Below, piece by piece: positions 3,495-34,380 of a stretch of DNA of 55,287 nucleotides. Under the pieces are notes generated by a model. It searched no databases and was not told the origin of the DNA. It saw only the letters and a program-made list of their open reading frames with translations. The translations under genes were made by a program, and so were the position numbers. The DNA is taken from NCBI GenBank assembly GCA_008632985.1, contig QPGO01000323.1, forward strand, positions 1 to 55,287, read 5' to 3'. The DNA is from Psammoneis japonica (Eukaryota). Position 1 is the stretch's first letter; the number at the start of each line of letters is the position of its first letter.

Positions 3495-6400
3495 TTCCTC
3501 CTCAATGTCCCCGTAAAACTCGGTCCAGTCTGCGTTCGAATTGAAAATAGATTCATCAATCACCGGTTCCTTTGGATCAAATCCGATGCGTCCGACGTTC
3601 TGGTGTTTCTTCATGTGCGCAAATGCATGATGCAATGCCTCAAGATGTCCTTTCCTTGGATTAGCTTGATGTTGAGATGGGATTGAAACCTCATGCAAGA
3701 CATCGATGCGACCCAACTTGATCGCCCAACGACAAATCCCTGTCAGCTGCAAATGCATGTCCACCAAGTCGGGGCCCAACTCGTCCGTCACGTCCAGTTC
3801 CAGTTTGTGCTTTGGGGGTGGTGGATCCTTTGCACTGTTCTTCAGAACCTCTCCATTGCCATCTTCATCCAATGGGCCTTCCACAGCCTCAATCGCCGAT
3901 TTGACATGTGACCTCGGTGAACTCGCCCAGATTGTGCGCCCATCCTGAGTCTGAACCTTCTCAACGTTAGCTCCAAGACAAACTTCTGGTTCTCCTTCGC
4001 TGCCGGGCTTCACGGCACAGTGTTCACCCATTGCAGCAACAATGGACTTCCCTTGATGGGAAATGACCAGCATGTCATCGACGCAAACCAAAAGCACTTC
4101 ACAATGCTCGTGCCCATCCTCACGAGTCGCCGCACGCAAGTGGACATCTGGGTCCGCTCTCGTCGATTCGAAGCCTGAGTCACGTGAGACCGATGACAGT
4201 GCAGACCTCCAAGAGTGTCCCTGGCTCTTTGAGCCATGCAACGCCCGAGCAACAACAAGCACCTTTCCTTCGCACTCGCCGCATTCCTTTCCACCTTCAA
4301 ACCACATCTTTTCTGTGCACGGTGCATTGAGACAAGCATTCTCCAGATCAATCGCCGTGGTGTCGACACCATTCAAGGCTGCTGACAAGAATCCAAGTCG
4401 CGCACTGTCTCTGGAAACCACGCCAGAGCAAGTGATCGATGCCGGGGCCTCTGTCGTGTGTCCGCCAGCTACAAACCTTGCCTTTCTGGTGAAATCCATT
4501 TTAATGTCGAATGCCATGTGGCACCTGATCTCCTGACAACCACGCAAAGTTGTGCTCTTGCCCCCCTGGACGACTTGAGGGGTTTCAGCTTCGTGTTCGC
4601 GCCATGCCACCTTCACCTTTGCCATCTCCTCATTGATTGCACGAGCCCAACAATCTGTCCCCGTTTCCTGATCAACCCGCAAAGCGTCCTCTGTGGACTT
4701 GGGCAGTCGGGCCCCAAACTTGTGAGTCATGCGCCAGTGTTTCTTCTTGACCTTGGACACAATGCGATTCCATTCACGTGGGACATGTGTGACCCACCAA
4801 GCAAAAGCAGGTTCTTCCGTCAACCTGTTCGCAACAGCATGCTCAGCAACTTCAATGGGGTTGGAGTCCTTTAGATCTTTGAGTTTGACCCAAGATGAGC
4901 TGCCATCCTTCCATCCAACCAATGACTTCCATCCTTTTGTTGTGATCTTCTTCTTCTCCTTCCCGTCAGCGGTTCGTGCGGTGCCGTCAGCAATCGACAC
5001 CGCATTGTCACTCCTCTCGTGGTCCTGCATCTCGTGCAAGATAGAATGCTGGTTGCCCTCGCTGTCGACCTGAGCAAACATGTTCTTGGCAATGACATTG
5101 GCTGCACACTCATCTGTGGTTCCGTCGGCATGTTCCACTTCGTTTTCGCGAGTGTCAAACAATGGGTTTTGATGCCGAGTCCCAATTGGACGCCCATCCT
5201 GTCCTCTTGCACGTTTCGTTACAACACCATGTCGCTCGCCGTCAGCTCCGATGTCAAACATGAGTTCCATTCCCAGGTGTTGATTGATTGCCTGCTCGTC
5301 ATCGTCGTCTGGTCACTCGTCGTGCAACAGCATGTTGCCACACTCCTCGTCCTCTGGCGTGATGCCACCCTCACATTCCACACCAAGGTTGCCGTCAATT
5401 GCAAGATCATCCAACACGAATGCGGGCACAGCTTCATTGCCTTTTAAGACAAAGTCAGCATCGTCCAATCGCTTCTTCAGCTGCTCGTTAAAGTTGTCGA
5501 CCTCAACACGAATGTCCGGTTGTGCCATGTCAGCCTGTGTCACATGCTCGACCGATGTTTTGGAGACAATCTTCCCGCTTTCCACAACAATCCAATGGCA
5601 CATGTCCGAGCCAACTTTGTGTGAGATGCCAAGCCACCGTCCAAGCCTTCGAGGATCGTCAGTTGCACTCGGCTTGTTGGGCCTGTCCCACCACCATGCC
5701 ATGTCGAAGAAACCAAAATCCAAACACTCGCCTGTCTCTGGTGTCTGCCCAGTGACCTCTTCACATCCAGCCCTCTTGTCCCTGCCTCTTGCCATGCACG
5801 ACACTAATTCTGACTCGCAAACAAGACCAAAATCCCACAATCGCTTTGGCACCTTCTTCTTTGTCATCCGCAGCCAACAACGTTTGGCCAAGAAACCAAT
5901 TTCGCGCTCCGCTGCCTGGTTCTGGTTCTTCCGACCCTGCTCTGATGTTCTCAATTGAACTCTCATGCATCGTACGTGTCTCACAAGCCTGTCGCAAAAT
6001 GATTGAAGTTGACAGATGGGAGACATGGACGACAGTTGCATTTCGACCTCGCCCCAGCGTGCTGCTTGGGACTTTGCCTTCTCGCTCCTTAGTTCCGAGA
6101 CCTGTTCTTGTCGCATGCCAGAGGTCAATGATTGAATGGCACGCATCTCCGCCTGCTCTCTAGCGCGCTCTGGCAAGCCCATGTCCATCTGTGCTGGATC
6201 CCATGCATCACCTGTCAACAGCACAACCGGCAAGTTCTGTGCTTCCCAATCCGTTGGAACACGAGACTTGAAAGACACAATTGTCCCTGTGGCATTGAAA
6301 GGGATGAAAGCTTCGTCAGCTTCAATGCCAAATCCGTTTCGGGCGTCGCAAGGGTTGTCGTGTGCGGGCATGTTGTGCGCACGGAGTTGGTTAGGATTCA

Positions 6401-6842
6401 AAAGTGAGTGTTGCATGTTGGTCCCAAACCAGAGCATTTGATCACCAACCAGCAAACATTCACGAGTCGTTTCCGGATCTGTCCATGCGGTGCAACAACG
6501 TGCCACAGGAATCTGTTTGATCAGCTCACAAGAGTCCAGAAATGGGTGCACCTCGCACACTTCATTTGTCATCTCCATGAGCTTCCAGTTCGCCCCAGTG
6601 CAACAAGTGTCTGCGTGAGTGTCACATTCATTTCGAGCGACAAACCCAGGTGTTGTCAAATTTGTCATCTGTGCAGAACTCGTCGATCGGATCACACATT
6701 TTGATGTCACGGCAATGTGCCTCTTTGTCGCCTTTCCTTTGAAACGAGATGTTGGGTGGGGTTTGGTCAACAGCAAGAAGGGTGGCACAAGCAAAAACGA
6801 CAAGTGTGCCAAATGCACCAACACTCCAGTGGCTGTTGCCAC
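3495..6842 (-). pseudogene. pol: copia A pol (protease, integrase lacking its core, chromo-like domain, RT; RNase H lost at the duplication junction)
   Basis: ORFs 5313-6842 and 3357-5270 contain DTHADT, WKDGSSSW, RKARFVAGGH, DLENACL, ALHGSKS and CVDD (from YVDD). Confidence 0.9.
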
Positions 6843-8092
6843 CCCAAGGAGTCAGGTGGAGCCATTGCATCCACCGCGATCCCGGTCAGCGCCGCGACCA
6901 CGCCCGCCACTCCTTTGCTCCTGATCCTGTTGTTGGGTTTGGCCTTGGCCATCTTGACAGACTTGGGCTTCAGCCACATGCCTGCCGCCCCCATCGCGTC
7001 CTTGTTGACCTGCGGGAGACCCACAGCCACCACCGCGTCCATGACCCATTCGTTCGCCAGCTTGGAACACGCAGCTCATGCCTCCATTGTGCTGTGACTT
7101 TTCCCATTCTAGAGCACTAAAGCTCCTTGTAGGGTCGGATGCATTGACTCCATTGATCATCGTAGTGTGGTCGCCACCTCTGCCTTGACGGCCACCACCA
7201 CGTCCGCGTCCACCCCCACGTCCAAATCTTCCTCCACGACCGCGACCTCGATAAAAACCGCGGCCACCACCGCCACCACGGCTCATTTCAGAAATCTTGC
7301 GCTTCAAGCAATGCCGGGCTTCCAACTGAGCACCTGCATGCAAACGAGAGACTTCGGATGAGAAACAAGCACATGCCCCCGCAAAGTCACGAGGGTGCTG
7401 ACTGCCAATGACAGCCGTTGCTGCAATGAGACGAGTGTCATCCGTTCGGATCCCCTTTAGAAGAATGTCAACTTTCTGTCGTTCAGATTTGCAGTCGTCC
7501 GGTGATTTGTTCAAAGTGGCGAAAGCACTGGCAAGTTTGTCATTGAACTTTTCGAACGGGAGCGATCCTTCCTTTTCACAAATCAAGGTTTCAACAGTTG
7601 CCGCAGCCAGATGGATGCGCTTGCTCAACTCGCCCTGTCCATTGCAATGGTCAACCCATGCGTTGAATGCTCCACGTCCGTCTTCTGTTGCGTCAAACGG
7701 TTCAATCCATGCCCACCCTGCTGTGTTGACCAAGTGTTCCTTCAACACACGGCAAACGCTGCGGTTGTCCTTGTCATGTGCGGCACCATTCATTGGCATC
7801 TGGCACATGCGCTGTTGTTGAGCATCCGTGAATGCAGCCGGAGCTGGCATTGTCCTTACGACACAGTGAAGGGGTTCTTTCAACACGCCAAATTTCTGTG
7901 CCAAGAGATTCAGGAAAGCATCTTCGCACACATCAAAGTCATCGGGCTTGAACTTTACGAGACCGCTTGCCAACGTGTCCGAATCCATGTGCTCCTTTTC
8001 GATGTGCATGCCATTCCGGCCCGCAGCCACAGCTGCTGCATTAAAGTCTGCCACAACCAATGGCTGATTCCGTTTGAGCAAATCCTGGCACC
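3495..8092 (-). repeat. Copy 1 of the 4598-bp tandem duplication
   Basis: The junction at 3494/3495 (ggcacc|ttcctcctc) joins the end of RT (FYGDIEEE) to mid-gag (WCQDLLKR). Confidence 0.92.
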
Positions 8093-8366
8093 ACCACACT
8101 GGCGCCTGCAAGTTCTTGATCTGAACAGTCCCAAGAGTCACACGTCCATCGGCCACCGTGCGACGAGACGCCCTCTGTGCCATGTCTTCCACATTGTGAT
8201 CACTCTCCATCACTGTGATGTTTTCCAAAGTCATGGGCCCTTCACAGAAGACCAACCTCGCCCTTGCGTTCTGGCCAGCAACACCACAAACTGGCAAAAC
8301 TGCGTCAATGTCAGCTGCCATGGCTGACGCCACAAGTGCTGCTGCTGGTGCTGCCGCTGCTGCCAT
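6852..8366 (-). pseudogene. gag: copia A gag with an RGG-rich C-terminus
   Basis: Open frame with copia gag motifs (AWIEPF..DGRGAF..GQGE, ERQKVDILLKGI). Only one Tyr remains. Confidence 0.85.
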
Positions 8367-8826
8367 CCCACAACAGAGAAAGGGTGTGAAGGTCCCACAC
8401 AAGGAACACACAGCTGTGAGTCTGCATGGTCATGATGGCTGCACTTTCTCTGTGTTGTGATGACGGGTTCACACAGCCACCCGACGTCAGGGTGATCAGT
8501 CCTGTGTCGTTCATGTCAACCAACATTGTTGAGCACACGCTCGGGCATGTCGCCCAATGCCGCAGTCCCTTCACACCCATCACATGTGTGAGGACAGTCA
8601 CTGTCTTTGAGAGTGTCACCATTGCAAGCTGTTTTTGTGGATGTCACAACAAGTGACACGAGACGCATCATCGTGCGCATCAATCCGAATTCTGACGCAT
8701 CGCGCACAGTTCAGCACCGTTTCTACAGCTGCACGTTCCATGCAAACAGCACAACAAACAATCGTCCATGACGAATTGTGTTTGAAACCATTTCGCTCTG
8801 TCTTTTTCGTCTTGGCTCTGACAAAG

Positions 8827-9008
8827 CGAATAAATCTCGATGCAATGAAAGAACAAGCACGACACCTTGAGTCTAAATGGAAAGCAGCGACACTGTCAAT
8901 GCAAGCCTGAACCTGATTAGATTGTGAGTGTGTTGCTGCAGCACCACTCGATCCATGTGTCTCAACCAATCACCAATTGCAACACAGCCCTCCATCCAGA
9001 TTCACTCG
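8827..9008 (-). repeat. 5' LTR of copia A (182 bp, CG...CG termini)
   Basis: Homologous to 27858-28039 and 34543-34692. A PBS-like ctttgtcagagcc follows immediately (8814-8826, minus). Confidence 0.88.
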
Positions 9009-9029
9009 CGTGCACGCCGTGGTTGCCAG

Positions 9030-9830
9030 TGCATCATTGGAGCACGCTCCAAGCATCGTCAATGTCAACACTGCCACCAGATTCAACAGGATGGCTGTTG
9101 TGGCTGTCAACCACAGTGCCAACCAGGCAGCAACAGTGCCTGCTCTTTTCATCAACATTTGAAGCAGCAAAGGTGGCTTTCTCAGCCAGTCAATCCCCAG
9201 GGCAGGCATGTGCTTCTTGTGCTGCCCAGCTGCTCTGCTTTTTGAGTTTCTTCTGGCACACCCTTTTCCTTTTGTTTGTTTGCATTGGTTGTCTGAGAAG
9301 AGCTTGATCCAGTGCTTGAATCCTCACCCTTGCTGCGACAGAGCACAGCTCCTTGCATCACATGGGCAAGAAGACCGTGCCATCATCACGCAAAAAATTG
9401 AGGCCCTTTTTCAGACCATGCTTTTTTGGATGGCGCAGGTGGCAAAACAGCTGGTCCATGCACGCCATGGCCACCAACATGTTGTTCGAGCATGCTGGTC
9501 TTGCGCAGCTTTGCACATGTTCCAAGCCTCATCAATGTCAACACTGCCGCCAGATTCAACAGGGTGGCTGTCAACCACAGTGCCAACCATGTGGCAACAG
9601 AGCTTGCTCTTTTCAACATCATTTGAAGCAGCACAGGTGGTGCTCTAAGCCAGACAATCATCATGGCAGGAAACTGCTTCTTGCGCTGCCCAGCTGTGCT
9701 GCTTTTTGAATTTCTTCTGGTGCAGCCATTTCCTTTTGTTTGTTTGTGCTGGCCGTCAGTTGACTGCCTGTGTTTTTTTCTTTCTCTGTCAAGCTGGAAT
9801 TGTGCTGCATGCAATTCCACGCGTGTTCCA
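9030..9830. repeat. Two diverged copies of an unidentified repeat module 'R'
   Basis: The blocks tcaatgtcaacactgcc / tttcttctggc..ccttttgtttgttt recur at about 9060, 9530, 37995 and 39778. Confidence 0.7.
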
Positions 9831-9853
9831 ATTGAAAGCACCTGCATGTTTTC

Positions 9854-11620
9854 ATGGCGTCTTCTTCCGTTGCCAACGGCAGCCACACACCTTCCCGTTG
9901 TGATGACGTGACTGTGGCCAATGACATCACTGTCGACCAATTGTCCATCAAGCCTTCCTCCAAACTGACAGAGTGTCAGTTTGAGGAACTTGCCCTTCGT
10001 TTCAATGTCATTGGTCCAAAAGCATGGCACAAGCCGATGACTCTTGTTGCCGCTCATTTGCAGGTCCTTCAACAAATTCTCTTCACCTGCTGTGAGGACG
10101 TGAAGATCATGGACAATGACAACAACCAAACTGCCCACGTTGCCACAGCCGAATGGGTGTCTTCTCTTCAACACGAACAACATTTTGTCATTTCAACGAC
10201 TTGCAAAGGTGAAAAGTGTCCTCTGACTCACCGCTCATGCCACCGGATCTTTGCAAAAATTCCTCTGCGTGACACTTGCTCTCATCCTCACATCCAGAGC
10301 ATTTTGGATTCTAACAACATGGGCATGAAACGTCATTTTGGGAATGAATCAGATGTCAAAACGGCCTCCCCAGCATGCCACATTGCTGCCACGACCAAAC
10401 ATGCTCCCGTCAACGAAGCTGCAAAAATGTTCCTCTGTGATCTTGGGAAATGCCAGACCAAAACACCAAAGTTCAGGTTGGCGCCCATCTCAATTCATGC
10501 TGATGACAAAGGTCTTGCTCCTCCCCTCCATGCTGCTGCCTTCACCACTGAGGCATTGATGGAGGACTGTCGCTTGGCTGGAAAGGCCTTGCTTTGTGCA
10601 TCAGAAAAGTTCCCGACACACATCGTCATGGCCAAGACCCGGCACATCTCCCCCCTCACCTTTTGTGATGTGGTCAAAATCCAGGCTCATTGGAATGAAG
10701 ATGCTTTCTTTGTTCCACTGTCGAGCACTGCTCCGGACATCATGCTCTGCTTTAAAAATCAACTCAAGGCATTGAAAGACATGAAAGCAATCTTCCCATC
10801 AAGTGCCGCTGCCGGCCAACACAATGTCCTCGTCAACCCTCTCGAGTTCAAGTCTGCCAGGGCTGCCATTTCTGCGTGCATCATGAACCTTGTCCCAACA
10901 ATTTTGAAAGAAGCCTGCCCCACCCCACTCTTCAGGGATCCTCCTCAAGTCTCTGGCATGCCAGAGGAGATGTCGGACACTGGCAAGTCCACTGTGTCAG
11001 CTGGCATCCACAGCCTGGAATCTCTCACCTTTTCCAACGTTTTGCCTTTGACAGACAACCAAGCTTCAGGAAATCACCAACAACCACCACCATTGAAATT
11101 GGCGGGCCGCAGTTGCAATGGCAGAGGTCAAGGTTTCCCAGGCCATGGTGCTCAACCAGGCTCAGCTGTTCCTCCCCACATCTGCACCCACTGCTCCCAG
11201 AACTCACCCTCGCCACCCGGGTGTCCCAGTTGCCCTGGCATGAATTCTCCTCCGTGCTCACATGCACAGGCTGCACAGTCGACCGCCAGTTCCATCACCT
11301 CCGTGCAGCTGGCTGATGTCCAACGCAACATGTCTCAGATGCAAGAGAAAACTGAGAAAGCCTTGGAGGATCTACGTTCACAACACTCACTAGATGTTGA
11401 GGTGATTGACGGTGCATTCGCGCAACAACCTGTGCAGGACATCGCTGTGTCACAGGCTCAGCACTCTCAACAACTTGCGGGCATGCAGGACCAGATGAAT
11501 CAGATGGTGCAACTGCTCCAAGCAAATCAACCAGTCCAAACATCAGCAAGGAAACGTCCAAATCACATGGACACACCAGATTGCTTGGCTGACTCACATG
11601 ACAAGGAGAAGGATTTTTAG
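9854..11620 (+). pseudogene. LINE ORF1-like protein (588 aa, Q-rich coiled-coil-like C-terminus)
   Basis: Long ORF directly upstream of the APE domain. No Tyr seen in 588 aa. Confidence 0.6.
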
Positions 11621-11692
11621 ACAGGGGTTGGACTTCGCCGCCTCCACCCCCTCAGACCATCAGGCGTCCACCAGACATCTCATCTCCTCCAA

Positions 11693-14600
11693 ATGATTCC
11701 CTCGCCATCTTCCATTTGTTCCACTGCACTGCCAAGTGTTCTCCTGCAGCGCAGCATCACCCGACAGTCAGAGCTCCAAGCCCCAGTCTTCTCCTTGGAG
11801 GAGCGTGGCCCCAACATGAGCAGTGACTCCATTGGTGCATCCTGCATTGACAAATGGCAATCACTCCTGAGTGGCACCAGCAACAGCGCATCAAGCACTT
11901 GAAGCAGTGATTTTTCTTGGCTGACATCCAATGATCCTGTTGGTGATGACCTTCGTCTGAAGCTGCCTCATCACACTCGACTGCATGCATTCAACGCCAA
12001 TGGTTGTAAATTGGACAAAAGAGGTGGCGACGTTCGTGAATGTTGTCAAATGGCAAACGAGATCCAAGCAGATGTCATGGGCATTTTGGAAGTCTGTCTG
12101 GACACTGCACAGTGTGAAATTTTGTCAGTGTGTCGATCTGCTGCACACAGTGCAATTTCCAACAGATGCAGCACCTTCTCATGCAGCTCTGCCCCCTTTG
12201 CCACTCAGCACAAACCTGGTGGTGCGGCCCTTTTGTCGGGGAACTCCATCTCAGCATGATGCCAAAGCCAAGAATCAGATCCACTGGGCCGTTGGTCTGC
12301 TCAGATCTTCGACGGGCGCAATGGCAAGCAAGTCATGTTCCTTTCGTGCTGCAGAGTTTGTGCAAAAAATCAAAGGACCCCTGGAAAGACTGCAGCATGT
12401 GCACAACAAGCAGCCCTTTTACGACAAAACGGTGGACAGTCCATTGACCCCAGGAAGGAATTTTGCACGGATTTATCTTGTTGCCTGCAAGAGTTCTTGG
12501 TCAACTCAAATCGTGAAGTCATCATTTGCGGAGATTTCATCACTGATTTTTTGATTGACGCGGACACTCTCGCCTCCCTTGCACAGCGTTTTACCCTTTT
12601 GGATGTGTCACATGATTTGATGGGCAGCACTGAATTTTCCACATGCACGCCAGGACGGAAATGCCTGGACTTTGTGCTTGCTGCCCCCGGTGCCTTGTCT
12701 GCTTCCAGGTTCAGCAGATGTGAAGCATTCGGTTGTCGCATCACTTCAGACCACCACGCTTGCTTCGTGGACTTTGACACGATGGCCTTGTCTGGGAACC
12801 CCACAGTTGACTTGCCTGAGGCCAGCTGCAGGGACATCCAGTGTTCTTCACAACCCCAAATTGCAACCTGCTCAGATGCCATTGGACAGATGTTGGCCAG
12901 CAGACAAATCTTGGCTTGCTCACAGGCACTGCTTGATCAAGACGCCCCTGATCACAAACCAGCAGAAAGGTCAGATTGAGGCATGTTGCAGCTCTCCTTG
13001 GCTGCTGCTGAGAAGTGTCGGGTCCACCAAGAACCAGAGTGGTCGGTTGAACTGTCACAACTGTGGCACCGAGTTCATGTCCTTGGCCATGTGGTCTCAA
13101 TGATGCACACCCGCCTGGATCAAGTCAGCCATGTCCACACTGTCTGAGACAAGCTGCAAGGTTCTTTTGCCTTCCCAGGCTGAATGTGGACAAGTTGCTG
13201 CTGAGAGCGTTGCACACTGCAAAAATGAAATGGCCAAGAAGATTGCCTCACTAGAAGTGGAAGGCACAAAGGAGTCAAAACAGAAACAAAGATCACACAA
13301 AATGTCCACAAGGCCAAAGAAACCAAGAAACTTTTCTGCAAGATTGAATGCTGCAAACTTGACAGTGACAATGGCATCAACAGCGTGCAGGTGCCCCGGA
13401 ACCCCATGGTGAATCCCAAAGAGTGTGAGGACTGGGTTGCCATGGACGCCCCAGATGATGTGGCTTCCGCCATCTGCCACCGCAGCCAGCATCATTTCGG
13501 TCAAGGAGCGTGGCCCCAACATGAGCAGTGACTCCATTGGTGCATCCTGCATTGACAAATGGCAATCACTCCTGAGCGGCACCAGCAACAACGCATCAAG
13601 CACTCGAAGCAGTGATTTTTCTTGGCTGACATCCAATGATCCTGTTGGTGATGACCTTCGTCCGAAGCTGCCTCATCACACTCGACTGCACGCATTCAAT
13701 GCCAATGGTTGTAAATTGGACAAAAGAGGTGGTGACATTCGTGAATGTTGTCAAATGGCAAACGAGATCCAAGCAGACGTCATGGGCATTTTGGAAGTCT
13801 GTCTGGACACTGCACAGTGTGAAATTTTGTCAGTGTGTCGATCTGCTGCACACAGTGCAATTTCCAACAGACGCAGCACCTTCTCATGCAGCTCTGCCCC
13901 CTTTGCCACTCAGCACAAACCTGGTGGTGCGGCCCTTTTGTCGGGGAACTCCATCTCAGCATGATGCCGAAGCCAAGAATCAGATCCACTGGGCCGTTGG
14001 TCTGATCAGATCTTTGACGGGTGCAATGGCAAGCAAGTCACGCTCCTTTTGTGCTGCAGAGTTTGTGCGAAAAATCAAAGGACCCATGGAAAGACTGCAG
14101 CATGTGCACAACAAGCAGCCCTTTTACGACAAAACGGTGGACAGTCCATTGACCCCAGGAAGGAATTTTGCACGGATTTGTCTTGTTGCCTGCAAGAGTT
14201 CTTGGTCAACTCAAATCGTGAAGTCATCATTTGCGGAGATTTCATCACTGACTTTTTGATTGACGCGGACACTCTCGCCTCCCTTGCACAGCGTTTTACC
14301 CTTTTGGATGTGTCACATGATTTGATGGGCAGCACTGAATTTTCCACATGCACGCCAGGACGGAAATGCCTGGACTTTGTGCTTGCTGCCCCCAGTGCCT
14401 TGTCTGCTTCCAGGTTCGGTGGATGTGAAGCATTTGGTTGTCGCATCGCTTCAGACCACCGCGCTTGCTTCGTGGACTTTGACACGATGGCCTTGTCTGG
14501 AAACCCCACAGTTGACTTGCCCAAGGCCAGCTGCAGGGACATCCAGTCTTCTTCACAACCCCAAATTGCAACCTGCTTAGATGCCACAGGACAGATGTCA

Positions 14601-22466: not shown

Positions 22467-22470
22467 GACA

Positions 22471-25204
22471 GAGGCCTGCATCCACCTGGACAATGTGCAG
22501 CAGACCTTGACACAAATCTGGCTCAATCTGCTCAATTGCGCCTTGTGCTGGGGATGCTCCTGCGACCGATGGAGAGACACCTGTAAATGTGATGACATTC
22601 AAGGAAGCTGGCAACAACAAGATCCATCGTTTGCACGTTGTTCATGTCTGCAAGGCAGATTTCCAACTCATCTCAAGTGTCCTGTGGCATTTGTTGGCTC
22701 AGAATGTGAAGCACCGCAAATTGTGCAACCCAGGCATTTGTGGTGTGCGTCCTTTCCTGCATGCCAACGTCCCATTGTGTTTGGAAGAATTGATGTTGGA
22801 AATCAACAGGGTGTCTCGGAAAACAGCCATCCATGGCAACGGCAACTGTGCCTCCTGTTGCGATGGGAACATTCCCACTCTGGCAGCTCTTGAAAGTCGC
22901 AGCAATGGCGTGCCTGAGACCGTGACAAAGTCAGCAACATCTGCCCTCCTGCAAGCTCGTCACTGGCTAAAAACAGCCATCGGATTGTCTCCCACCTCAT
23001 GTTCCCACTCATTGGACATTCCCATCTGCGGCACAGGACAAGGCAGTGAAAACTCTCCACTGTGCTGGAACCAGGTGTGCAACAGTTTGTTTGATCTCTT
23101 CAACCAAAAAGCTCACGGAGCCTTCTTTGAGTCTCTTGGTCATTCTGTGTCACTCAAGATCTGTGACCGAGGCTGCACAGACAACACATCCAAGCAGGTG
23201 AACGACTTCACTGCATCCCCCCAGCCTGATGGTTTGGAGTTGGCACTCAAAACGCAGCAAGATGATCAACTTTGGCGCGACCCGCTGAACGCAGCAGGAC
23301 ACAAGCTGGAACTTCCGAAGTGCTCCTTTCATGTCATTGAATGGAACTTTGTGGAGGATGGCGAACCTCACCTCCGCGCATGCAATGACGACATCGTCAT
23401 TGACATTTCCTCCACAGACAGGTCCAACAGCAGGCCCAGCACTCAACTGTCGCCTTGCACCTCCCACAAGACTTTGGGCCACCACAAAGCTCCGGCTGGA
23501 ATGCAAAAGATGCACTGCAAGGCCTTGAAGAAGAAGAGCTGTGATGTGGCCTTGTTTCTTTGCTCATGCCCGTTAGATTGTCACAAAGCATGAACCCATT
23601 GCTTTGCATGCTGCTTGGCAGCGATCCAGAGGAAGGCCATGCGCACGATCTTTGCAAAATGTGGGTGTGATTGCAACATGAAACGAAATGCCTCATTTGG
23701 CCCACATTCCCTTGGAGGCGGCGGTTTCCGGTCCTTGGATGTCAAACAAGGAGTCAGCCAAGTCACGCAGTTCATGTCTCACTGGAGAGGTGTCGGCCAA
23801 CCACGTGCCCTTTCACGGACCACAGCATCTTGGGTTCAGTTCCATCTGGGCACCGGTGTCAGCTTTTTGAAGGATGTGCACTCCCGCCCACCACATTCTG
23901 AGTCAAAATGGCTCAGCTCACTTGGATCCTTTCTCTCCCGCATCAACACTTCCTTTGACCTGGACGAACCTGGAGTCCTTCCACTTCAACGAGACAATGA
24001 CCAATGTCTCATGGACACAGCACTTGACTCGGGACTTTTCTCTGACAAAGAGGTCAGGTGGGTCAACTGCTGTTGCCTGTTTCTCAACGTCCTCACAGTT
24101 TCGGGTGTCACCTTGCCCGATGGCAGAGCACTTGACAAGCACAAGTTCCGCTGACACACCTCAGTTCTCAGTGGCATTTTGACATTGAACCAAGTTGAAC
24201 AGGCAGCCCCATCTGCCAGAGCATGGAAACAATGGCAACGTGCCTGCAGGTTGTTTTGCAAGAATGTTGATTTAGAGCTTCAAGGCCCCCTTGGCTCTTG
24301 GGCAATTCCAGCGACAGAGATGCTTGCGACCTTTCCAGCGCACTGTGAACCTGACGAAGATCATTTGCGTGTAAAGTCGGACACGGGATTTCAGGTTTTC
24401 CCCATGTCTCATGGCTCCACCCAATCTGTTGATCCTCTCAAGGTTGCACCTGATCTGTCTCTGAGGGCTTCTCCAGTGATGGCAGGTGCCAATCGAGATG
24501 GCTGGTGGTGCACTGGACACACTGGTTCTTCATTCGACCCACCTCCCGCCACACCGGTTCCTTCAGACTTTTAAGCTTGGTTGTCATCATTGCAGCAATG
24601 GGAGTCATTCCTCTTTGCCGACGCGCACTTGCATGCACCCGTCTTTGAGATTGCACGCTGCTTGCAGACACACCGGTCAACAGCTGGCAGCGATGGCTCC
24701 ATCATCAGAAATGCAGGAACTTTCAGCTGGACTCTCGCCGTCAATGGTGCCGTCCAATGGAGCGCAGCTCACACTTTGCACCTCAGGGGCACGGAATTTC
24801 CTTCTGATGTGGAGGAGAGCATCTGGAGATTGGGTCAGTCAGCTGCCATGGGAAGCTTCATTTGGCCTCAATGGCGGGAGCTGTGGGATCAACATGATGA
24901 CGAAGTGCATGGCCACGATGCGGAGACGAGGAAATCAGCCCAACGGAGAGGCGCAGAGGCAGAAGTCAAGGTCATTTGCCCCAGATCAAGCAAATGTCTT
25001 GCAAAGGATGGGCCCACCTTGCTCAACTTGGTGGAAGAACACTCAGCTCATTCTGCTTGCAGGTTGTGAAATTGGCTGGAAATGGTGACACCCATGTTTG
25101 AGTCCAGCATCAAGGAGGTGAAACGGCTTGCAGCAAGGGGCACTCGTGCTGTTGCCAGTTGCTTTGGCGTGGCATCACCTGAGGGCGATGCCGGCACAGG
25201 CTGA
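22471..25204 (+). pseudogene. LINE ORF2 RT / RNase H / C-terminal part, internally deleted
   Basis: Resumes in frame with the codons before 15538 once copia B and one GACA are removed (GAT CTG ACA GAG GCC ... GTG CAG CAG). Confidence 0.82.
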
Positions 25205-25495
25205 TTGCTGCATGCCCCTGCCACAGACATGTGCGCTGGGGGTGTGGGCCAGCTTGTTGCCAGAGTTGCTGGGCGGAAGCGCAGTGGCACCTTAAAAATG
25301 GACACCAGGTTTTTGTTTTTGGGGCTGTGCTGCATGCAGCCCAGAATGTGCGGATGGCTGGCGCATCTGGACGATGTGCTCCAGCCTTTGGCTGGACTCT
25401 GTGCAACATTGGCGCAGCAGAGCTCTGTGCGAGAGATCCACAACACAAGAAACTGCCACGCTGTCAGCCACTTGTTTTCCAGGTCATTTTGCTGC

Positions 25496-25815
25496 CTGCA
25501 AACACGGGCATTTTTTCTGCAAACACGGGCGCTTTTCCTGCAAACACCAGCACTTTTTCTGCAAACATGAGCGCTGCTCCTGCACATCTGGTTGCACACA
25601 AATCCAAGATGAGCACCAGCATGACAAAATTTCCACTGCTGTCAAAAGTTGGGCTTGTCTTGTGTTCTCAAGACATGCTCAAGATCTGGGTGGGACCTTG
25701 CGCTGCTGAGTTGCGGCATCATTGACGCGAAGCCATTTGGGTTTCCAGGTCACTTTGCAGCCTGCAAACACGGGCATTTTTCCTGCAAACATGGGCATTT
25801 TTCCTGCAAACATGA
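25496..25815. repeat. Two short arrays of a 20-22 bp minisatellite (ctgcaaacacgggcatttttt)
   Basis: Four units at about 25496-25572 and three units at about 25762-25818. Confidence 0.8.
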
Positions 25816-27144
25816 GCGCTGTTCCTGCACATCTCTGGCTGTGCACAAGTCCAAGATCTGTGCCAGCTGACAAAATTTGCATTGCTGTGGGGCCTCACAC
25901 TGCTGAGCTGTGGCATCGTTGGCATGAAGAGCGAGTGGCCAAATGTCTTTTCAGGCGTTGTTCTTTGCCACACATGATCTTCCCCAATTCTGTCAAGGAT
26001 TTTTGGCAGCAGCTGGCTGGGTTGGAGTGCAGCCATGCACTCTCTGGGTCAGCTGTGGGGGCACAGTTTGAAACAAACTCCTCTGGCTTGTGCCACTTGT
26101 CAGCTGAGAAGAGCTTCATTCTGTGTTTGAGCTCATGTTCATCTGTGAACAGACTAAAATTCTCTGCCGTCTGACGGCCATTGTCTGGTGATTTGTCAAT
26201 CACCACTTTCAACTTTGGCACCAAAAAACAACGCACCACCCCGGCAAGCAAGATTCAGCACTCTGCCGCTCCACAGCTGCAAAAGTTTGCTCATGCTGCA
26301 CTGCAAAGTTGTTCTGCACACTGTGAAGTGTGCTGTCATTGCTTGAAATTTTGATTTGAGGCAAGGGATCATTGCAGGCATTGCAGCCAAAGTGATGGAT
26401 GATTGTGCGTTAAAATTTTGATCTTTTGCAGCATGCCTCAGTGCTGGGCAACATGGCGAGACCTTGCATGGCATCTGGCGCATGGCAGTGTGCAACTCTG
26501 CCTTTGCTTCATGGCCGCTGGCACAGATGTTGCCCTTTTCTGACGATGTGATGATGGTTCTTGCCTGCCTGTTCAGATGCACTCTTTTGTCAACACGCCA
26601 TTGTTCTGCGATCATTGGCAATCTCATGCAGCGGAAAATGAATTGCGCCAAGCTCTTGTGGCTTGTTTGCTCAACGCTCTTCTTGGCATTTTTTGTTCTT
26701 GCATGCAAAGTTTCTGCGCAGATCTCAGTGCAAATTCTGCATGTTCTGCAAGTCATTTCAGACTGATGACTCATCAAAATGCCGGCTGCTCTCTCTCTCT
26801 GTGCCTCTCAAGTGTGAACGACCCCCTTCTCTCCATTGTCTGTTCAAGTTTCCTGCGTTTTGTGGCAAACATTTTCCCATCGTTGCTGTTTTTGGAAGTT
26901 TGAAGCAGTGACCAATTCAGCGTGCATTGGCCATCCTTCCACGTGCCAACAAGTCTGCACAAATTTCAGCACAAATTCTGCGTGTCACGGAAATGCTTTC
27001 AAATGGCTGATGCCCCAATCTCTTGACTGCTCTTCACAAATGCCTGGCAAGCTCCAAAGACTCCCCCTTTGCCCGCTGTCCCTTTGAGTTCTCTGCTTCA
27101 TGTGGCAAACACTCTTCTGTTCTTGTTGCTGCCAGAAGTGTGGA

Positions 27145-27540
27145 CGGGTTCCAGCCCCAGGTGGGACTCCGTGTGACATTGGGCCCACAGAATTCTGCGT
27201 GCGAGCTCCGCAGCAAATTTGTGCTGCAATGAAAACATGAATGATCGCCAACAGAAAAAGAGGCAATTTTACAAACGCATCTCCTCCTTCATGCTTGCAG
27301 CACATCATTGACAGTTTGCCCGGGCATGTTCTTCAGACATCAAAGAACACACCCAGCATGTTTTTATTCTCATGAATGTTGAAAATAGAAAGCCTTTGGC
27401 TTCGCAAAACAGGGAGCATGAAACAATTTCGTAGAATGCAACACGTAGAAATGTGCGTGCGCGACATGCAACGCGATCCAAAAAACTGTTGATGTCACAG
27501 TGCAGTGGCACGAGGTCCCACCCATGGTTGGAACGCGTCT
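27145..27540 (+). repeat. About 390-bp module 'S' bounded by inverted repeats (MITE-like)
   Basis: Homologous to 40112-40497 (+) and 35768-36163 (-). Confidence 0.65.
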
Positions 27541-27857
27541 GTGAATTTGAGATCAACTCATTTGCCAATGCTTCCTGCCAAGTTCCTGCGCATGACTCAG
27601 CACAAGTTCTGCATGTCACAAAAACAATTTCTGATGGCCAGTCTCTCGATCATCCGATTGCTTTCTGTCTGCACCTGCCAAGCTCCAACAACCCCCCCTT
27701 TCCTCAATGCCTTTTTAAGTTCTCTGCTCCATGTGATGAACACCCTTTTGTTGTTGCTGCCACAAGAAGTTTGACTTTGAGACCAAAATGGTGGTTGGCA
27801 ATGTTTTGGTCCTTGGCTGTGACATTTGTGGTGTTTGCTCTGTTTCAGATCCATTCC

Positions 27858-28039
27858 CGAGCAAATCTGGATGGAGGGCTGTGTTGTGATTGGTGATTGG
27901 TTAAGATGTGTGGATCCAGTGGTGCTGCAACGACACGCTCACAATCCAATCAGGTTTGGGTTCGCATTGACAGTGTCGCTGCTTTTCATTTAGACTTGAG
28001 GTGTCGTGCTTGTTCTTTCGTTGCATCGAGCTTTGTTCG
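27858..28039 (+). repeat. 5' LTR of copia A
   Basis: cgagcaaatctgg...ctttgttcg. Confidence 0.9.
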
Positions 28040-28499
28040 CTTTGTCAGAGCCAAGACGAAAAAGACAGAGCGAAATGGTTTCGAGTGCAATTCGTCATGG
28101 ACGATTGTTTGTTGTGTTGTCTGCATGGAACGTGCAGCTGTAGAAATGGCACTGATCTGCACGCGATGCGTCAGAATTCGGATTGATGCGCACGATGATG
28201 CATCTTGTGTCGCTTGTTGTGACATCCACAAAAACAGCTTGCAACGGCAATGCTCGCAAAGACAGTCACCATCCTCACACATGCAACGGGTGTGAAGGGA
28301 CTGTGGCATTGGGCGACATGCCCGAGCGTGTGCTCAACAATGTCGGTTGACATGAACGACACAGGACTGATCACCCTGACGTCGGGTGGCTGTGCGAACC
28401 CATTGTCACAACACAGAGAAAGTGCAGCCATCATGACCATGCAGACTCACAGCCACATGTTCCCGGTGTGGGACCTTTGTGCCCTTTCTCTGTCACAGG

Positions 28500-30045
28500 A
28501 TGGCAGCAGCGGCAGCACCAGCAGCAGCACTTGCGGTGTCAGCCACGGCAGCTGACGTTGACGCAGTTTTGCAAGTTTGTGGTGTTGCTGGCCAGAATGC
28601 AAGGGCGAGGTTGGTCTTCTGTGAAGGGTTCACGACTTTGGAAAACATCGCAGTGATGGAGAGTGATCACGATGTGGAAGACATGGCGCAGAGGGCGTCT
28701 CGTCGCACGGCGGTCGACGGACGTGTGGCTCTTGGGACTGCTCAGATCAAGAACTTACAGGCGCTAGCATGGTGGTGCCAGGATTTGCTCAAACGGAGTC
28801 AGCCATTGGTTGCGGCAGACTTTAATGCAGCAGCTGTGGCTGTGGCCCGGAGTGGCAGGCGTGTCAAAAAGGAGCACACGGATTCGGACGCATCGGCAAG
28901 CGGTCTCGCAAAGTTCAAGCCCGATGACTTCGATGTGTGCGAAGATGCTTTCTTGAATCTCTTGGCACAGAAATTTGGCGTGTTGAAAGAACCCCTTCGC
29001 TGTGTTGCAAGGACAATGCCAGCTCCGGCTGCATTCACGGATGCTCAACAACAGCGAATGTGCCAGATGCCATTGAATGGCGCCGCACATGACGAGGACA
29101 ACCGCAGCGTTTGCTTTGTGTTGAAGGAACACTTGGTCGACACAGCAGGACGGGCATGGATCAAACCGTTTGACGTGGCAGAAGATGGACGTGGAGCATT
29201 CAACGCATGGGTTGACCATTGCGGTGGACAGGGCGAGTTGAGCAAGTGCATCCATCTGGCCACGGCAACTGTTGAAACCTTGTTTCACAAAAAGGAAGGA
29301 TCGCTCCCGTTCGAAAAGTTCAATGAGAAACTTGCCAGTGCTTTCGCCACTTTGAACAAATCACCGGACGACCGCAAATCTGAACGACAGAAAGTTGACA
29401 TTCTTCCAAAAAGGAATCCAAACGGATGACACTCGCCTTGTTGCAGCAACGGCTGTCATTGGCAGTCAGCACCCTCGTGACTTCGTGGGGGCATGTGCTT
29501 GTTTCTCATCCGAAGTCTCTCGTTTGCATGCAGGTGCTCAGTTGGAAGCCCGGCGTTGCTTGCAGCGCAAGATTTCTGAAATGAGCCGTGGTGGCTGCGG
29601 TGGCCGCGGTTTTTGTCAAGGTCGCGGTCGCGGAGGAAGATTTGGACGTGGGGGTGGACGCGGATGTGGTGGTGGCCGTCAAGGCAGAGGTGGCAACCAC
29701 ACTGCGATGATCAATGGAGTTGATGCATCCAACCCTGCAAGGAGCTTTAGCGCTCAAGAATGGGAAAAGTTGCAGCACAATGGAGGCATGAGCTGCGTGT
29801 TCCAAGCTCGCGAACGAATGGGTCATGGACGCGGTGGTGGCCGTGGATCTCCCGCAGGTCAACAAGGACGCAATGGGGGCAGCAGGCATGTGGCTGAAGC
29901 CCAAGTCTGTCTAGATGGCCAAGGCCAAACCCAACAACAGGGTCAGGAGCAAATGAGTGGCGGGCGTGGTTGCGGCGCTGACCGGGATTGCGGTGGACGC
30001 AATGGACGTGCCTTCGGTTGGGGAGCCTGCAATGGTTCCACCTGA
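28500..30045 (+). pseudogene. gag: copia A gag (frameshift near 29410)
   Basis: ORFs 28479-29429 and 29395-30045 are collinear with 6852-8366. Confidence 0.88.
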
Positions 30046-30054
30046 CTCCTTGGG

Positions 30055-33000
30055 GTGGCAACAGCCACTGGAGCATTGGCGCATTTGGTGCACTTGTCGT
30101 TTTTGCTTGTGCCACTCTTCTTGCTGTTGACCAAACCCCACCCAACATCTCGTTTCAAAGGAAAGGCGACAAAGAGGCACATTGCCGTGACATCAAAACG
30201 TGTGATCCGACCGACGAGTTCTGCACAGATGACAAATTTGATGACACCTGGGTTTGTTGCTCGAAATGAATGTGATGCTCACGTGGACACTTGTTGCGCT
30301 GGGGTGAACTGGAAGCTCATGGAGATGACAAATGAAGTGTGCGAGGTGCGCCCATTTCTGGACTCTTGTGAGCCGATCAAACAGATTCCTGTGGCACGAT
30401 GTTGCACCACATGGACAGATCTGGAAACGACTCGTGAATGTTTGCTGGTTGGTGATCAAATGCTCTGGTTTGGGACCGACATGGAACACTCACTTTTGAA
30501 TCCTAACCAACTCCGTGCGCACAACACACCCGTGCATGACAACCCTTGCGACACCCGAAACGGATTTGGCATTGAAGCTGACAAAGCTTTCATCCCTTTC
30601 AATGCCACGGGGACAATTGTGTCTTTCAAGTCTCGTGTTCTGACGGATTGGGAAGCACAGAACTTGCCGGTTGTGCTGTTAACAGGTGACGCATGGGATC
30701 CAGCACAGATGGACATGGGCTTGCCAGAGCGCGCTAGAGAGCAGGCGGAGATGCGTGCCATTCAATCATTGACCTCTGGCATGCAACAAGAACAGGTCTC
30801 GGAACTGAGGAGCGAGAAGGCAAAGTCCCAAGCAGCACGCTGGGGCGAGGTCAAAATGCAACTGTCGTCCATGTCTCCCATCTGTCAACTTCAATCGTTT
30901 TGCGACAGGCTTGTCAGCTCAGTGAACGTGGCTTGTGCATGTCGCGACAACGTGGACAAGAGGCACAGGGCAGTCAAAGATTTGCACAGCAAGGATCGGC
31001 ACTCGAAGGTTGACGCTGAAGAGCTGGCCCGAAAATGGAGCATCGGTTTAGAAACGGCAAAAGACACTCTCAATGTAACAACTCAGCGCGGTGTGCAAAC
31101 GGCGACACAGCCGATGTCACGAAGAGTGAGGGTGGATCATCTTGACTTGCATCAGAAGCGTCTGAAAGGAACATGGTTTGTGGACACTTTGATGTCCAAG
31201 GTGAAGTCTTTGCTTGGTGACACGTGTGCCAATGTTTGCACTCAGGGCAAACTCGTGAAGGTTGTGCCGATGACCGCTGGGTCGGAGGCAGGTTTGTCTC
31301 TTGTTGAATTCACAGACGACGTGGGTGCACCAGAACATCTCACATCGGACGGGGCAGGAGAGTTCACAGGAAGGAGCACCGAATTTGTGAGACATGCACG
31401 ACGCATGAGAGTGCAACCAGAACAACAGAGCAGGGTCGGAAGAACCAGAACCAGGCAGCGGAGTGCGAAATTGGTTTCTTGGCCAAACGTTGGCGGCTGC
31501 GGATGACAAAGAAGAAGGCACCAAAGCGATCATGGGATTTTGGTCTTGTTTGCGAGTCGAAATTAGTGTCGCGCATGGCAAGAGGCAGGGACAAGAGGAC
31601 TGGACATGAAGAGGTCACTGGGCAGACACCAGAGACAGGCGAGCATTTGGATTTTGGTTTCTGCGACATGGCATGGTGGTGGGACAGGCCCAACAAGCTG
31701 AGCGCAGCTGACGATCCTCGAACGCTTGGACGGTGGCTTGGTGTCTCACACAAAGTTGGCTCGGATGTGTGCTGTTGGATCATTGCAGACAGCGGGAAGA
31801 ATGTCTCCAAAACATCGGTTGAGCACGTGACACAGGCTGACATGGTGCAACCGGATGTTTGCGTCAAGGTCGACAACTTTAATGAGCAGCTGGAGAAGCG
31901 ATTGGACAATGCCAACTTTGTCTTAAAAGGTGATGAAGCTGCACCCGCATTCGTGTTGGACGATCTTGCAATTGACGGCAACCTCGGTGTGGAACATGAG
32001 GGCAGCATCACACCAGAGGACGAGGAATGTGGCAACATGCCATTGCCCGACGAGCAACCAGACGACGACAACGAGCAGGCAATCGATCAACACCTGGGAA
32101 TGGAACTCATGTTTGACATCGGAGCTGACGGCGAGCGACGTGGTGTTGCAACAAAACGTGCAAGAGGACAGGATGGGCGTCCAATTGGGACTCGGCATCA
32201 AAACCCATTGTTTGACACTCGCGAAAACGAAGTGGAACATGCCGACGGAACCACAGACAAGCACGCAGCCAATGTTGTTGCCAAGAACATGTTTGCTCAG
32301 GTCGACAGCGAGGGCAACCAGTGTTCTGTCTTGCACGAGATGCAGGACCATGAGAGGAGTGACGATGCAGTGTCGATTGCTGACGGCACCGTACGAACTG
32401 CTGACGGGAAGGAGAAGAAGAAGATCACAACAAAAGGATGGAAGTCATTGGTCGGATGGAAGGATGGCAGCTCATCTTGGGTCAAACTCAAAGATCTAAA
32501 GGACTCCAACCCCACTGAAGTTGCTGAGCATGCTGTTGCAAACAGGTTGACGGAGGAACCTGCTTTTGCTTGGTGGGTCACACATGTCCTGCGCAAACGG
32601 AGTCGCATTGTGTCCAAGGTCAAGAAGAAGTGCTGGCACACGACTCACAAGTTTGGGGCCCAATTGCCCAAGTCCACGGAGGACGCTTTGCGGGTTGATC
32701 AGGAAACGGGGACAGATTGTTGGGCTCGTGCAATCAACAAGGAGATGGCAAAGGCAAAGGTGGCATGGCGCGAGCACAAAGCTGAAACCCCTCAAGTTGT
32801 CTGGGAAGGCAAGAGCGCAACTTTGCGTGGTTGTCAGGAGATCAGGTGCCACATGGCATTCGACATTAAAATGGATTTCACCAGAAAGGCAAGGTTTGTA
32901 GCTGGCGGACACACGACAGAGGCCCCGGCATCAATCGCTCACTCTAGCATGGTTTCCAGAGACAGTGTGCGACTTGGATTCTTGTCAGCAGCCTTGAATG

Positions 33001-34380
33001 GTGTCGACATTGCGGCGATTGATCTGGAGAATGCTTGTCTCAATGCACCGTGCGCAGAAAAGATGTGGTTTGAAGGCGGAAAGGAATGCGGCGAGTGCAA
33101 AGGAAAGGTGCTTGTTGTCACTCGGGCGTTGTGTGGCTCAAAGAGCTTGGGATGCTCTTGGAGGTCTGCACTGTCATTGGTCTTGCGTTGCTCAGGCTTC
33201 GAATCGACGAGAGTGGACCCAGATGTCTGCTTGCGTGCGGCGACTCGTGAGGATGGGCGTGAGCATTGTGAAGTGCTTTTGGTCTGTGTCGATGACACAC
33301 CAATCATTTCCCATCAAGGGAAGTCCATTGTTGTTGCAATGGGTGAACACCATGCCGTGAAGCCTGGCAGCAAAGGAGAACCAGAAGTTTGTCTTGGAGC
33401 TGACGTTGAGAAGGTTCAGACTCAGGATGGGCGCACAATCTGGGCAAGTTCACCGAGGTCACATGCCCAAATTGGCGATTGAGACTGTGGAAGGCCCGCT
33501 GGATGAAGACGGCAATGGAGAGGTTCTGAAGAACAGTGCAAAGGATCCACCACCCCCGAAGTGCAAACCAGAACTGGACGTGACAGACGAGTTAGGCCCC
33601 GACTTGGTGGACAGGCATTTGCAGCTGATGGGGATTTGTCGTTGGGCGATCGAGTTGGGTCGTGTTGACATCTTGCATGAGGTTTCAATCCTGTCTCAAT
33701 GTCAAGCTAATCCGAGGAAAAGGACATCTTGAGGCATTGCATCATGTGTTTGCGTGTGTGAAAAAACACCACAACGTCGGACGCATCGGATTTGATCCAA
33801 AGGAACCGGTGATTGATGAATCTATTCTCAATTCGAACGCAGACTGGACCGAGTTTTACGGGGACATTGAGGAGGAACTGCCGCCACGGGCACCAAAGCC
33901 TCGTGGTGATCTGGCAAACATCTGTGCATTTGTTGACGCTAACCATGCAGGGAATGTTGTCACTCGCAGGTCGCATGGCGGGACTCTGACATTCGTCAAT
34001 GACACGCCAGTGGTGTGGTTCAGCAAGCGGCAGAACACGGTGGAATCGGCAACGTTTGGAAGTGAATTGGTTGCGATGCGGACTTGCAAGGAATTGATTG
34101 TTGCTTTGCGTCACAAGCTTCGCATGTTTGGGGTTCCCCTTGAAGGACCGGCAAGTGTCTTTTGTGACAATCGCGGTGTTGCAAAGAATGCAAGTGCACC
34201 CAAGTCGGTTTTGCACAAGAAGCACAATGCCATCAACTGCCATGTTGTGCGAGAAGCGGTCGCAGCGGGAATCATTCGTGTGGGCAAGAAAGATGCGGAA
34301 ACGAACTTGGCCGATCTACTTGCGAAGGTGGTCACAGGAGAGCGGCGATGGAAGCTTTGCTTGTGCATTTTTTGGCAATG
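30055..34380 (+). pseudogene. pol: copia A pol (protease, integrase, chromo-like domain, RT, RNase H) with about three frameshifts
   Basis: Motifs DAHVDT; WFVDT..TSDGAGEF; RKARFVAGGH; CVDD; FVDANHAG..WFSKRQNTVESATFGSE; NLADLL. Confidence 0.92.

Follow-up and report, generated by a model that had tools for sequence, protein, structure and literature searches.

Probable in-place hypermutation of TpA dinucleotides in a retrotransposon-rich region of Psammoneis japonica

Psammoneis japonica contig QPGO01000323.1 (assembly GCA_008632985.1), all 55,287 nt of which were analyzed and are referred to here as the window, carries two unrelated families of copia retrotransposons and two tandem duplications (Table 1), and is almost devoid of the dinucleotide TpA. 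Copies were delimited by comparison of the window with itself and by pairwise alignment, which place three pieces of the first family, copia A, in the window; we refer to these as M1, M2 and P. Copia A has the features of Ty1/copia elements of the diatom CoDi-like type, with a reverse transcriptase (RT) of the RVT_2 type, direct long terminal repeats (LTRs) and one gag-pol frame. In M2 this is a single frame of 1685 codons (8411..3357), interrupted by only two in-frame TGA stops and with its last ~46 codons extending into M1; Tyr makes up only 0–0.2% of it, and RVT_2 (PF07727) is recognized with E = 2.2e-8 (34.4 bits, above the cut-off of 31.6). Pfam searches of the protein P0121 and of the intact homologue P0122 identified RVT_2 only, and PF00665 then PF07727 are listed in two distant copia A homologues. 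There are 905 homologues of copia A at E<=1e-5, the best with 64% identity. Those with eukaryote names are from diatoms (Fragilaria crotonensis, Nitzschia inconspicua), and one match is labelled as a bacterial metagenome-assembled genome (MAG; Marinobacter).

The departure from ordinary composition spans the whole window. There are 246 TA dinucleotides where 3251 are expected (observed/expected 0.076), and the ratio is 0.01–0.16 in each 1.5-kb bin. TG and CA have observed/expected ratios of 1.3–2.0, with totals of 5643 and 5610 respectively, and the ratio for CG is 0.33–0.94. On the plus strand the stop-codon words TAA and TAG occur 105 and 89 times, and TGA 1152 times. Tyr accounts for 0–0.3% of the residues in 13 long open reading frames (ORFs) of the window, compared to a median of 3.6% across 232 proteins, and both His and Cys are raised in these ORFs. 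In contrast, 57 related copia loci found in metagenomes by profile search have ordinary TpA levels (TA observed/expected 0.47–0.89). The TA density is 45.6 per kb in these relatives and 4.45 per kb here, a gap that by itself would lift the G+C content by about four points; the window is 51.5% G+C, and the related loci range from 42% to 52%. The first-pass annotation had placed conversion of TpA at 3495..33900. Conversion is indeed found there, but it is not confined to that interval, since all 55,287 bp are TpA-depleted, and ~35 kb without recognizable retroelement ORFs are as strongly depleted as elsewhere in the window.

The sister copies of copia A differ from each other in an unusual manner. 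The first-pass annotation had listed ten codons that are His in one copy and Cys in the other, and proposed that each copy had separately lost the TA of an ancestral Tyr codon. All ten pairs are present, two examples being CAC at 4739..4737 (minus) paired with TGC at 32631, and CAT at 4238..4236 (minus) paired with TGT at 33132. The three states reported for the start of the LTR were likewise found, as cgagTAaatc at 34543, cgagCAaatc at 27858 and cgagTGaatc at 9008 (minus). Alignment of M2 (3495..9008, minus) with P (27858..33877, plus) gives 5513 ungapped columns, of which 420 are mismatched, by a transition in 386 cases and by a transversion in 34. There are 114 adjacent double differences, and 88 of these are CA/TG pairs; the other 26 are AC/GT (12), AA/GG (4), CC/TT (3), CG/TT (2) and five singletons. 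When the substitutions were permuted 1000 times, the mean number of such reciprocal pairs was 5.3 and the maximum 14. One-sided differences include 74 CG/TG and 63 CG/CA. TpA observed/expected ratios in the two aligned copies are 0.10 and 0.08, with 15 TA dinucleotides kept in both copies and 19 paired with something else (TA/x), and 225 CpG dinucleotides are kept in both. The directions of conversion do not form long-range strand-coordinated runs (40 runs compared to 45 expected, z = -1.07), and only neighbouring conversions no more than 5 bp apart tend to share direction (nine of eleven instances).

The ancestral state at the reciprocal sites was judged by site-wise counts, using 60 full-length copia A homologues as the outgroup. 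The proposal that Tyr is ancestral at the Cys/His codons survives the comparison with intact homologues, in which Tyr is the commonest residue at seven of the ten cited codons (60/60, 60/60, 59/60, 53/60, 37/59, 28/60 and 24/60) and Arg is dominant at none of the ten. Among the 25 columns with a Tyr consensus, both copies have CAY or TGY at 22, of which 13 are concordant and nine reciprocal; TAC is retained by the two copies at one column, and the last two columns have other states. The changes polarized in this way are A>G/T>C transitions, and run counter to the usual GC>AT bias of mutation. At the 49 columns with an Arg consensus, 23 have CGN in both copies, CpG has been lost from one copy at five, and there is one instance each of CAG/TGG and CAG/CAG. 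Family B, the second copia family, has Cys or His at all nine of its Tyr-consensus columns, and His, Cys, Gln or Trp at nine of 34 Arg-consensus columns, which corresponds to more CpG decay than in copia A. A near-identical unmutated copy that would represent the true ancestor was not found in searches of metagenome contigs; searching these with the mutated protein gave 27 stretches matching the pattern, none of which was confirmed.

Both kinds of loss can be accommodated in a two-process model. Loss of 23% of CpG per copy, acting on ~383 sites, accounts for ~10 of the 88 reciprocal pairs, and the remaining ~78 together with the 19 TA/x pairs correspond to a TpA loss of 94% per copy at ~175 sites, a modelled ancestral TA number that is within the range of the relatives. 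The per-lineage rates are 2.85 for TpA, 0.27 for CpG and 0.010 per base for other sites, so that TpA is lost ~10 times faster than CpG, and relative to other sites is changed ~285 times faster per dinucleotide or ~140 times faster per base. These observations support TAY (Tyr) as the ancestor of the bulk of the reciprocal sites, with CpG decay being real but minor.

Each site is hit once. There are no CG/TA pairs in the 5513 aligned columns, and CGY is present at none of the 25 Tyr-, 15 His- and seven Cys-consensus columns; a converted site is immune, in keeping with a process that requires TpA, which the product no longer is. The Tyr codons of M2 and P have become His in 21 instances and Cys in 24, showing that both strands are used. 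The earlier proposal that either strand could be hit thus holds, but the choice of strand is not free and follows the flanking bases. The survival of TA, taken as the frequency of each context here relative to the related copia loci, is lowest for ATAC/GTAT (0.002) and ATAT (0.004), followed by GTAC (0.02), ATAG and ATAA (0.03 each), and CTAC and GTAA (0.12 each), and highest for CTAA (0.36), CTAG (0.37) and TTAA (0.41). A model in which each flanking base has its own rate, and the rates are additive, describes all ten values. The gains from ATAA are predominantly ACAA (+3.23 per kb, compared to +0.54 for ATGA), and those from GTAA are predominantly GCAA (+4.58, compared to +0.44 for GTGA). 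These favored product directions indicate that the changed pair adjoins the informative flank. As read from these counts, the motif would be 5'-T-A*-Y-3' (the asterisk marks the changed base and Y is a pyrimidine) if A is the target or, equivalently, 5'-R-T*-A-3' (R is a purine) if T is the target. The flank rule T-A*-Y, which is new in this analysis, predicts whether the outcome is Cys or His. Tyr codons that follow a pyrimidine have become Cys in 16 cases and His in three, and those that follow a purine have become Cys in eight and His in 18 (Fisher p = 7e-4). Flanks of the R..Y type are found at 37 of the 88 reciprocal sites and at 222 of 889 concordant CA/TG dinucleotides (chi-square p = 5e-4), and the TA dinucleotides surviving in M2 and P are almost all of the Y-TA-R type.

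Converted states are inherited with the DNA in which they lie. M1 and M2 are identical at all 45 sites in the M1 range at which M2 and P are reciprocal, and therefore the states were duplicated together with the sequence and do not reflect noise in the consensus. The claim that each copy lost TA independently is backed even within the single element P, whose two LTRs differ reciprocally. There are 18 mismatches in 150 columns between these LTRs (five reciprocal pairs, four TA/x, two CpG-type and two other), and 16 of the 18 are TA- or CpG-type. Because the LTRs of P are expected to have been identical at integration and now differ, conversion happened in the chromosome, a timing read from the sequence. 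More recent duplicates differ in other ways. Of the 12 differences between M1 and M2, nine are CpG-type, and eight of the 12 are polarized by P as CpG losses. The 5.2-kb tandem copies have 64 differences, with 42 CpG-type, eight TA/x and one reciprocal pair among them, and the 46 differences between the 1.7-kb tandem copies include 24 CpG-type, four reciprocal and two TA/x. As most of the differences between recent duplicates are CpG-type, the conversion of TpA is the earlier event and decay of CpG is ongoing, and the types of difference in the 5.2-kb duplication place it later than TpA conversion. We also examined contigs from sequencing run X1, in which there are 1809 pieces matching copia A, 378 of them at >=99% identity to P, and the family is therefore multi-copy. 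Variants among the 34 events listed for X1 include CA>TG (four), TG>CA (one), CA>CG (seven) and CA>TA (one). Run X2 has one matching piece and run X3 has none.

Some copia proteins from other assemblies have the same signature. In P0024, 17 of 20 Tyr-consensus columns contain His or Cys, in P0144 eight of 29 do, and P0252 contains 1.0% Tyr; P0122 and P0141 show no replacement of Tyr by His or Cys in 29 columns. P0024 is at most 54% identical to anything in the window and thus represents a different lineage from the window elements. Other genomes, or other families of elements, may therefore be subject to the same process. Looking up the clusters of P0024, P0001 and P0002 gave no names.

The remaining features of the window are summarized in Table 1. 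At 3494/3495 the truncated 3' end of M2 meets, head-to-tail, a position inside M1 that corresponds to 8092, and an ORF at 3357..5270 spans this junction. The arrangement represents segmental duplication, at the DNA level, of an element that had already been converted. A segment of 467 bp at 30918..31384 of P is missing from both M1 and M2, either because of a deletion inherited through the M1/M2 duplication or because of an insertion in P. The named relatives of family B are also from diatoms (Fragilaria, Cyclotella, Thalassiosira), together with one match labelled as a bacterial MAG (Plesiomonas). Both tandem duplications consist of sequence without a Pfam match. The observed/expected ratio of CpG drops to 0.33–0.5 at 9001..15000, 22501..27000 and 34501..40500, and is 0.7–0.9 in the copia A copies; the low-CpG stretches have either a greater age or heavier methylation. 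A 21-bp tandem repeat (consensus about CTGCAAACACGGGCACTTTTT) forms two short arrays ~200 bp apart within 25490..25829, and the sequence is complete apart from a single N at position 639.

Table 1. Features of the Psammoneis japonica window
Feature	Position	Strand	Remarks
Whole window	1..55287	.	TpA-depleted, CpA/TpG-enriched DNA
Copia A partial copy M1	1..3494	-	DNA-level duplicate of 4581..8092; 12 mismatches in 3493 columns
Copia A copy M2	3495..9008	-	5' LTR at 8827..9008; 3' end truncated
1.7-kb unit tandem duplication	11799..15211	+	97.2% identical
Family B, second unrelated diatom-type copia	16393..21874	+	
Family B gag-like ORF	16393..17889	+	
Family B ORF	18053..20152	+	
Family B RT similarity	20506..21874	+	
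Copia A copy P	27858..34692	+	LTRs at both ends
P 5' LTR	27858..28039	+	
P 3' LTR	34543..34692	+	32-bp deletion
5.2-kb unit tandem duplication	41737..52209	+	98.7% identical

There are 89 stop-to-stop ORFs of at least 150 aa in the window, many of them overlapping on opposite strands. The near-absence of TAA and TAG fills both strands of converted regions with long, spurious ORFs; most of the 89 are probably of this kind and would mislead gene callers. A Pfam scan of 64 other stop-to-stop ORFs of at least 150 aa gave nothing beyond sub-threshold matches on one ORF, at 51989..53503 (plus), which has similarity to Aminotran_3 (21.9 bits, compared to a cut-off of 30.5) and a weak match to DUF1635. 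This may be a degraded fragment of a captured host gene or a chance match. Scans of the window for tRNAs and Rfam families gave no matches, and no recognizable host gene was found by the Pfam, tRNA and Rfam scans. Proteins of converted regions escape domain searches because their Tyr residues have been replaced.

An explanation that we consider likely is that this transposon-rich nuclear region has undergone TpA-specific DNA hypermutation in place, probably through adenine deamination by a TadA/ADAT-like enzyme acting in defence. One A:T pair of each TpA has been changed to G:C, leaving TpG or CpA, and as neither product is TpA on either strand the site has become immune, so that no second hit to give CpG is seen. 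The strand depends on the neighbouring base, such that a changed A is followed by a pyrimidine or, on the other strand, a changed T is preceded by a purine. Sites of the R-TA-Y type would be good targets on both strands with a stochastic outcome, and would be the source of the reciprocal Cys/His pairs, whereas Y-TA-R sites (TTAA, CTAG, CTAA) would be poor targets and supply most of the surviving TA. Tyr codons were changed to His or Cys, and TAA and TAG stops removed. The process ran close to saturation, with TpA loss of ~94% per copy and ~90% window-wide, after integration of the elements and before the local segmental duplications, and slower ordinary decay of CpG to TpG or CpA (~23% per copy) continues alongside and dominates the newest differences. 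We infer that the process is an enzymatic genome defence, and the likeliest chemistry, as has been proposed for Bigelowiella natans, would be conversion of adenine to inosine in DNA by a putative TadA/ADAT-like deaminase.

Several observations weigh against this explanation or limit its reach. One of the ten cited codons has Trp in 56 of 60 homologues, at another Tyr and Arg are equally frequent (six each of 28), and one reciprocal column in the RT alignment is Ala in 52 of 60. The ancestral TA density is taken from relatives at 43–64% protein identity and not from the true ancestor, and there is no DNA of normal composition within the window with which to compare. The assembly was possibly built from X1, for which no platform is recorded, and X1 therefore carries little independent weight. 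Lastly, the sequence alone cannot distinguish deamination of A from a route through modification of T. In the latter, the T of 5'-R-T-A-3' would be modified or oxidized by a TET/JBP-like enzyme (to a base of the 5-hydroxymethyl- or 5-formyl-uracil type) and mispair with G, giving T>C. TpA is self-complementary, and R-T*-A>R-C-A fits all of the counts as well as T-A*-Y>T-G-Y; moreover, in dinoflagellate DNA 5-hydroxymethyluracil is found preferentially at TpA and TpC. However, we know of no record of such a thymine modification in diatoms, and the invariant U33-A34 on which the TadA/ADAT enzymes act corresponds to the T-A context. Deamination of A is also what is proposed in the only published treatment of the signature, as far as the main text of that preprint goes (bioRxiv 10.64898/2026.01.13.699255), and we regard thymine as an unlikely target.

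The other alternatives have less to recommend them. Editing during retrotransposition, with deamination of RNA (A>G) and of minus-strand cDNA (T>C) before integration, would give each new copy its own pattern, as is observed, and retroelements are known targets of APOBEC (cDNA) and ADAR (RNA), both of which are discussed in the main text of the B. natans preprint (10.64898/2026.01.13.699255). It is nonetheless very unlikely, since the two LTRs of P differ from each other by five reciprocal and four TA/x changes in 150 columns, the ~35 kb without retroelement ORFs are as strongly depleted, and His and Cys outcomes are balanced (21 and 24). The process described in the same preprint, moreover, hits integrated single-copy viral DNA in place (10.64898/2026.01.13.699255, main text). 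ADAR-type RNA editing, which would act before integration and on the transcript strand only, is contradicted by the 21 His and 24 Cys outcomes and by the unlike LTRs. An artefact of sequencing or assembly, in which miscalling of a modified base at TpA leaves CA or TG in the consensus at random, is suggested by the near-total, composition-blind loss of one palindromic dinucleotide over 55 kb, which resembles a systematic miscall, and by the unrecorded platform of X1. We consider it highly improbable. All 45 sites with disagreement between M2 and P have the same state in M1 as in M2; the CG/TA outcomes that per-base majority calling would give are absent; 378 of the 1809 X1 pieces match P at >=99% while other pieces carry the reciprocal state; and Tyr is replaced by His or Cys in proteins from other assemblies (17 of 20 in P0024 and eight of 29 in P0144). 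We give scarcely any credence to an origin from ancestral CpG, in which deamination of 5-methylcytosine would turn the CpG of Arg CGY codons into TpG or CpA, depending on the strand, although this is the textbook origin of reciprocal TG/CA pairs. CpG decay is evident in the common CG/TG (74) and CG/CA (63) differences, in the eight of 12 M1/M2 differences polarized by P as CpG losses, and at Arg-consensus columns (five one-copy losses and one CAG/TGG out of 49). However, 225 CpG dinucleotides are kept in both copies, and both the TA observed/expected ratio of 0.08 and the absence of Tyr are left unexplained. As the main cause, ancestral CpG is ruled out by the homologues, which have Tyr and not Arg at the Cys/His codons, and by the model, in which a loss of 23% predicts only ~10 of the 88 pairs.

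Hypermutation as a genome defence is known in the form of cytosine deamination, by the fungal process of repeat-induced point mutation (RIP) and by APOBEC in animals. Fungal RIP makes C>T changes that create TpA from CpA or TpG, and is directed at repeats, in place and on either strand with few indels. In-place hypermutation of TpA in P. japonica resembles it in that a dinucleotide-specific transition hypermutation kills transposon copies in place, copy by copy and on either strand, with few indels, but is its mirror image in direction, with TpA being destroyed (A>G). The signature of RIP itself, an excess of TpA, is ruled out by the TpA observed/expected ratio of 0.076 and by the direction of change (TA>CA/TG). 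Decay of methylated CpG, which appears here as a second process, likewise gives TG or CA depending on the strand and can produce reciprocal TG/CA pairs; however, the TpA process is ~10 times faster per site (2.85 compared to 0.27), and the Tyr codons are not explained by CpG. APOBEC3 acting on cDNA and ADAR acting on dsRNA share with our window the deaminase-type clustered transitions that inactivate retroelements, but here conversion followed integration, took place on both strands and extends to DNA that is not part of a transposable element. The preferred 3' neighbour of ADAR is G, whereas here it is a pyrimidine. The natural substrate of TadA and ADAT2-ADAT3 is A34 following the invariant U33, a U-A context, and the U-A-C-G of the bacterial TadA loop corresponds to T-A*-Y; that such an enzyme acts on chromosomal DNA here is something that we purely infer. 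On the 5' side, ADAR favors U next to the edited A, as noted in the main text of the B. natans preprint (10.64898/2026.01.13.699255).

An adenine-directed, TpA-specific version on chromosomal DNA has one prior report, a 2026 preprint on the chlorarachniophyte B. natans, from the main text of which the following points are taken (Mettrop et al., bioRxiv 10.64898/2026.01.13.699255). When B. natans was followed in mutation-accumulation lines, the mutation rate of two integrated viral regions was ~1000 times that of the remaining genome; nearly every change is A>G/T>C, TpA is the site of all of them, and reverse transcriptase and DDE domains are over-represented in TpA-depleted coding sequences. 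The authors put forward an ADAT2-like deaminase as responsible, and ADAT2 is cited as reported to edit DNA in amphioxus (10.64898/2026.01.13.699255). A full-text search of the literature turned up neither a second paper on hypermutation directed at TpA nor one that brings TpA, TpG, CpA and diatoms together. The window would represent the end state of TpA hypermutation on LTR retrotransposons with diatom-named relatives, in which an LTR pair serves as an internal clock arguing for action after integration. The T-A*-Y motif narrows the search for the enzyme and allows Cys or His outcomes to be predicted. We raise the broader possibility, which we put slightly short of an even chance, that a diatom-lineage alga has an adenine-directed counterpart of RIP, with a T-A-Y DNA deaminase rewriting the TpA of integrated selfish DNA to saturation, copy by copy and strand by strand, at the cost of Tyr codons and of TAA and TAG stops, and, given that the signature is shared with a chlorarachniophyte and with P0024, P0144 and P0252, that TpA editing is a widespread and possibly ancient eukaryotic defence. 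If this is so, T-A-Y would be the first sequence motif for finding the enzyme, and TpA editing would not be peculiar to one species.

The two systems as described, that of B. natans on the main text of the preprint, have several points in common. In both, A>G/T>C changes occur only at TpA and give TpG or CpA according to strand, both act on integrated foreign DNA, and both result in depletion of TpA with enrichment of CpA and TpG. The depletion is 0.076 over 55 kb here, compared to a Rho of 0.45 in the B. natans nucleocytoplasmic large DNA virus (NCLDV) region, and the B. natans target is single-copy, unlike the repeats at which RIP is directed. P. japonica departs from B. natans in that the targets are LTR retrotransposons with diatom-named relatives, and in the argument from an LTR pair for post-integration action. 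A further departure is the flank rule; the words 'context', 'flanking' and 'trinucleotide' are absent from the main text of the preprint, although its supplements may hold context data.

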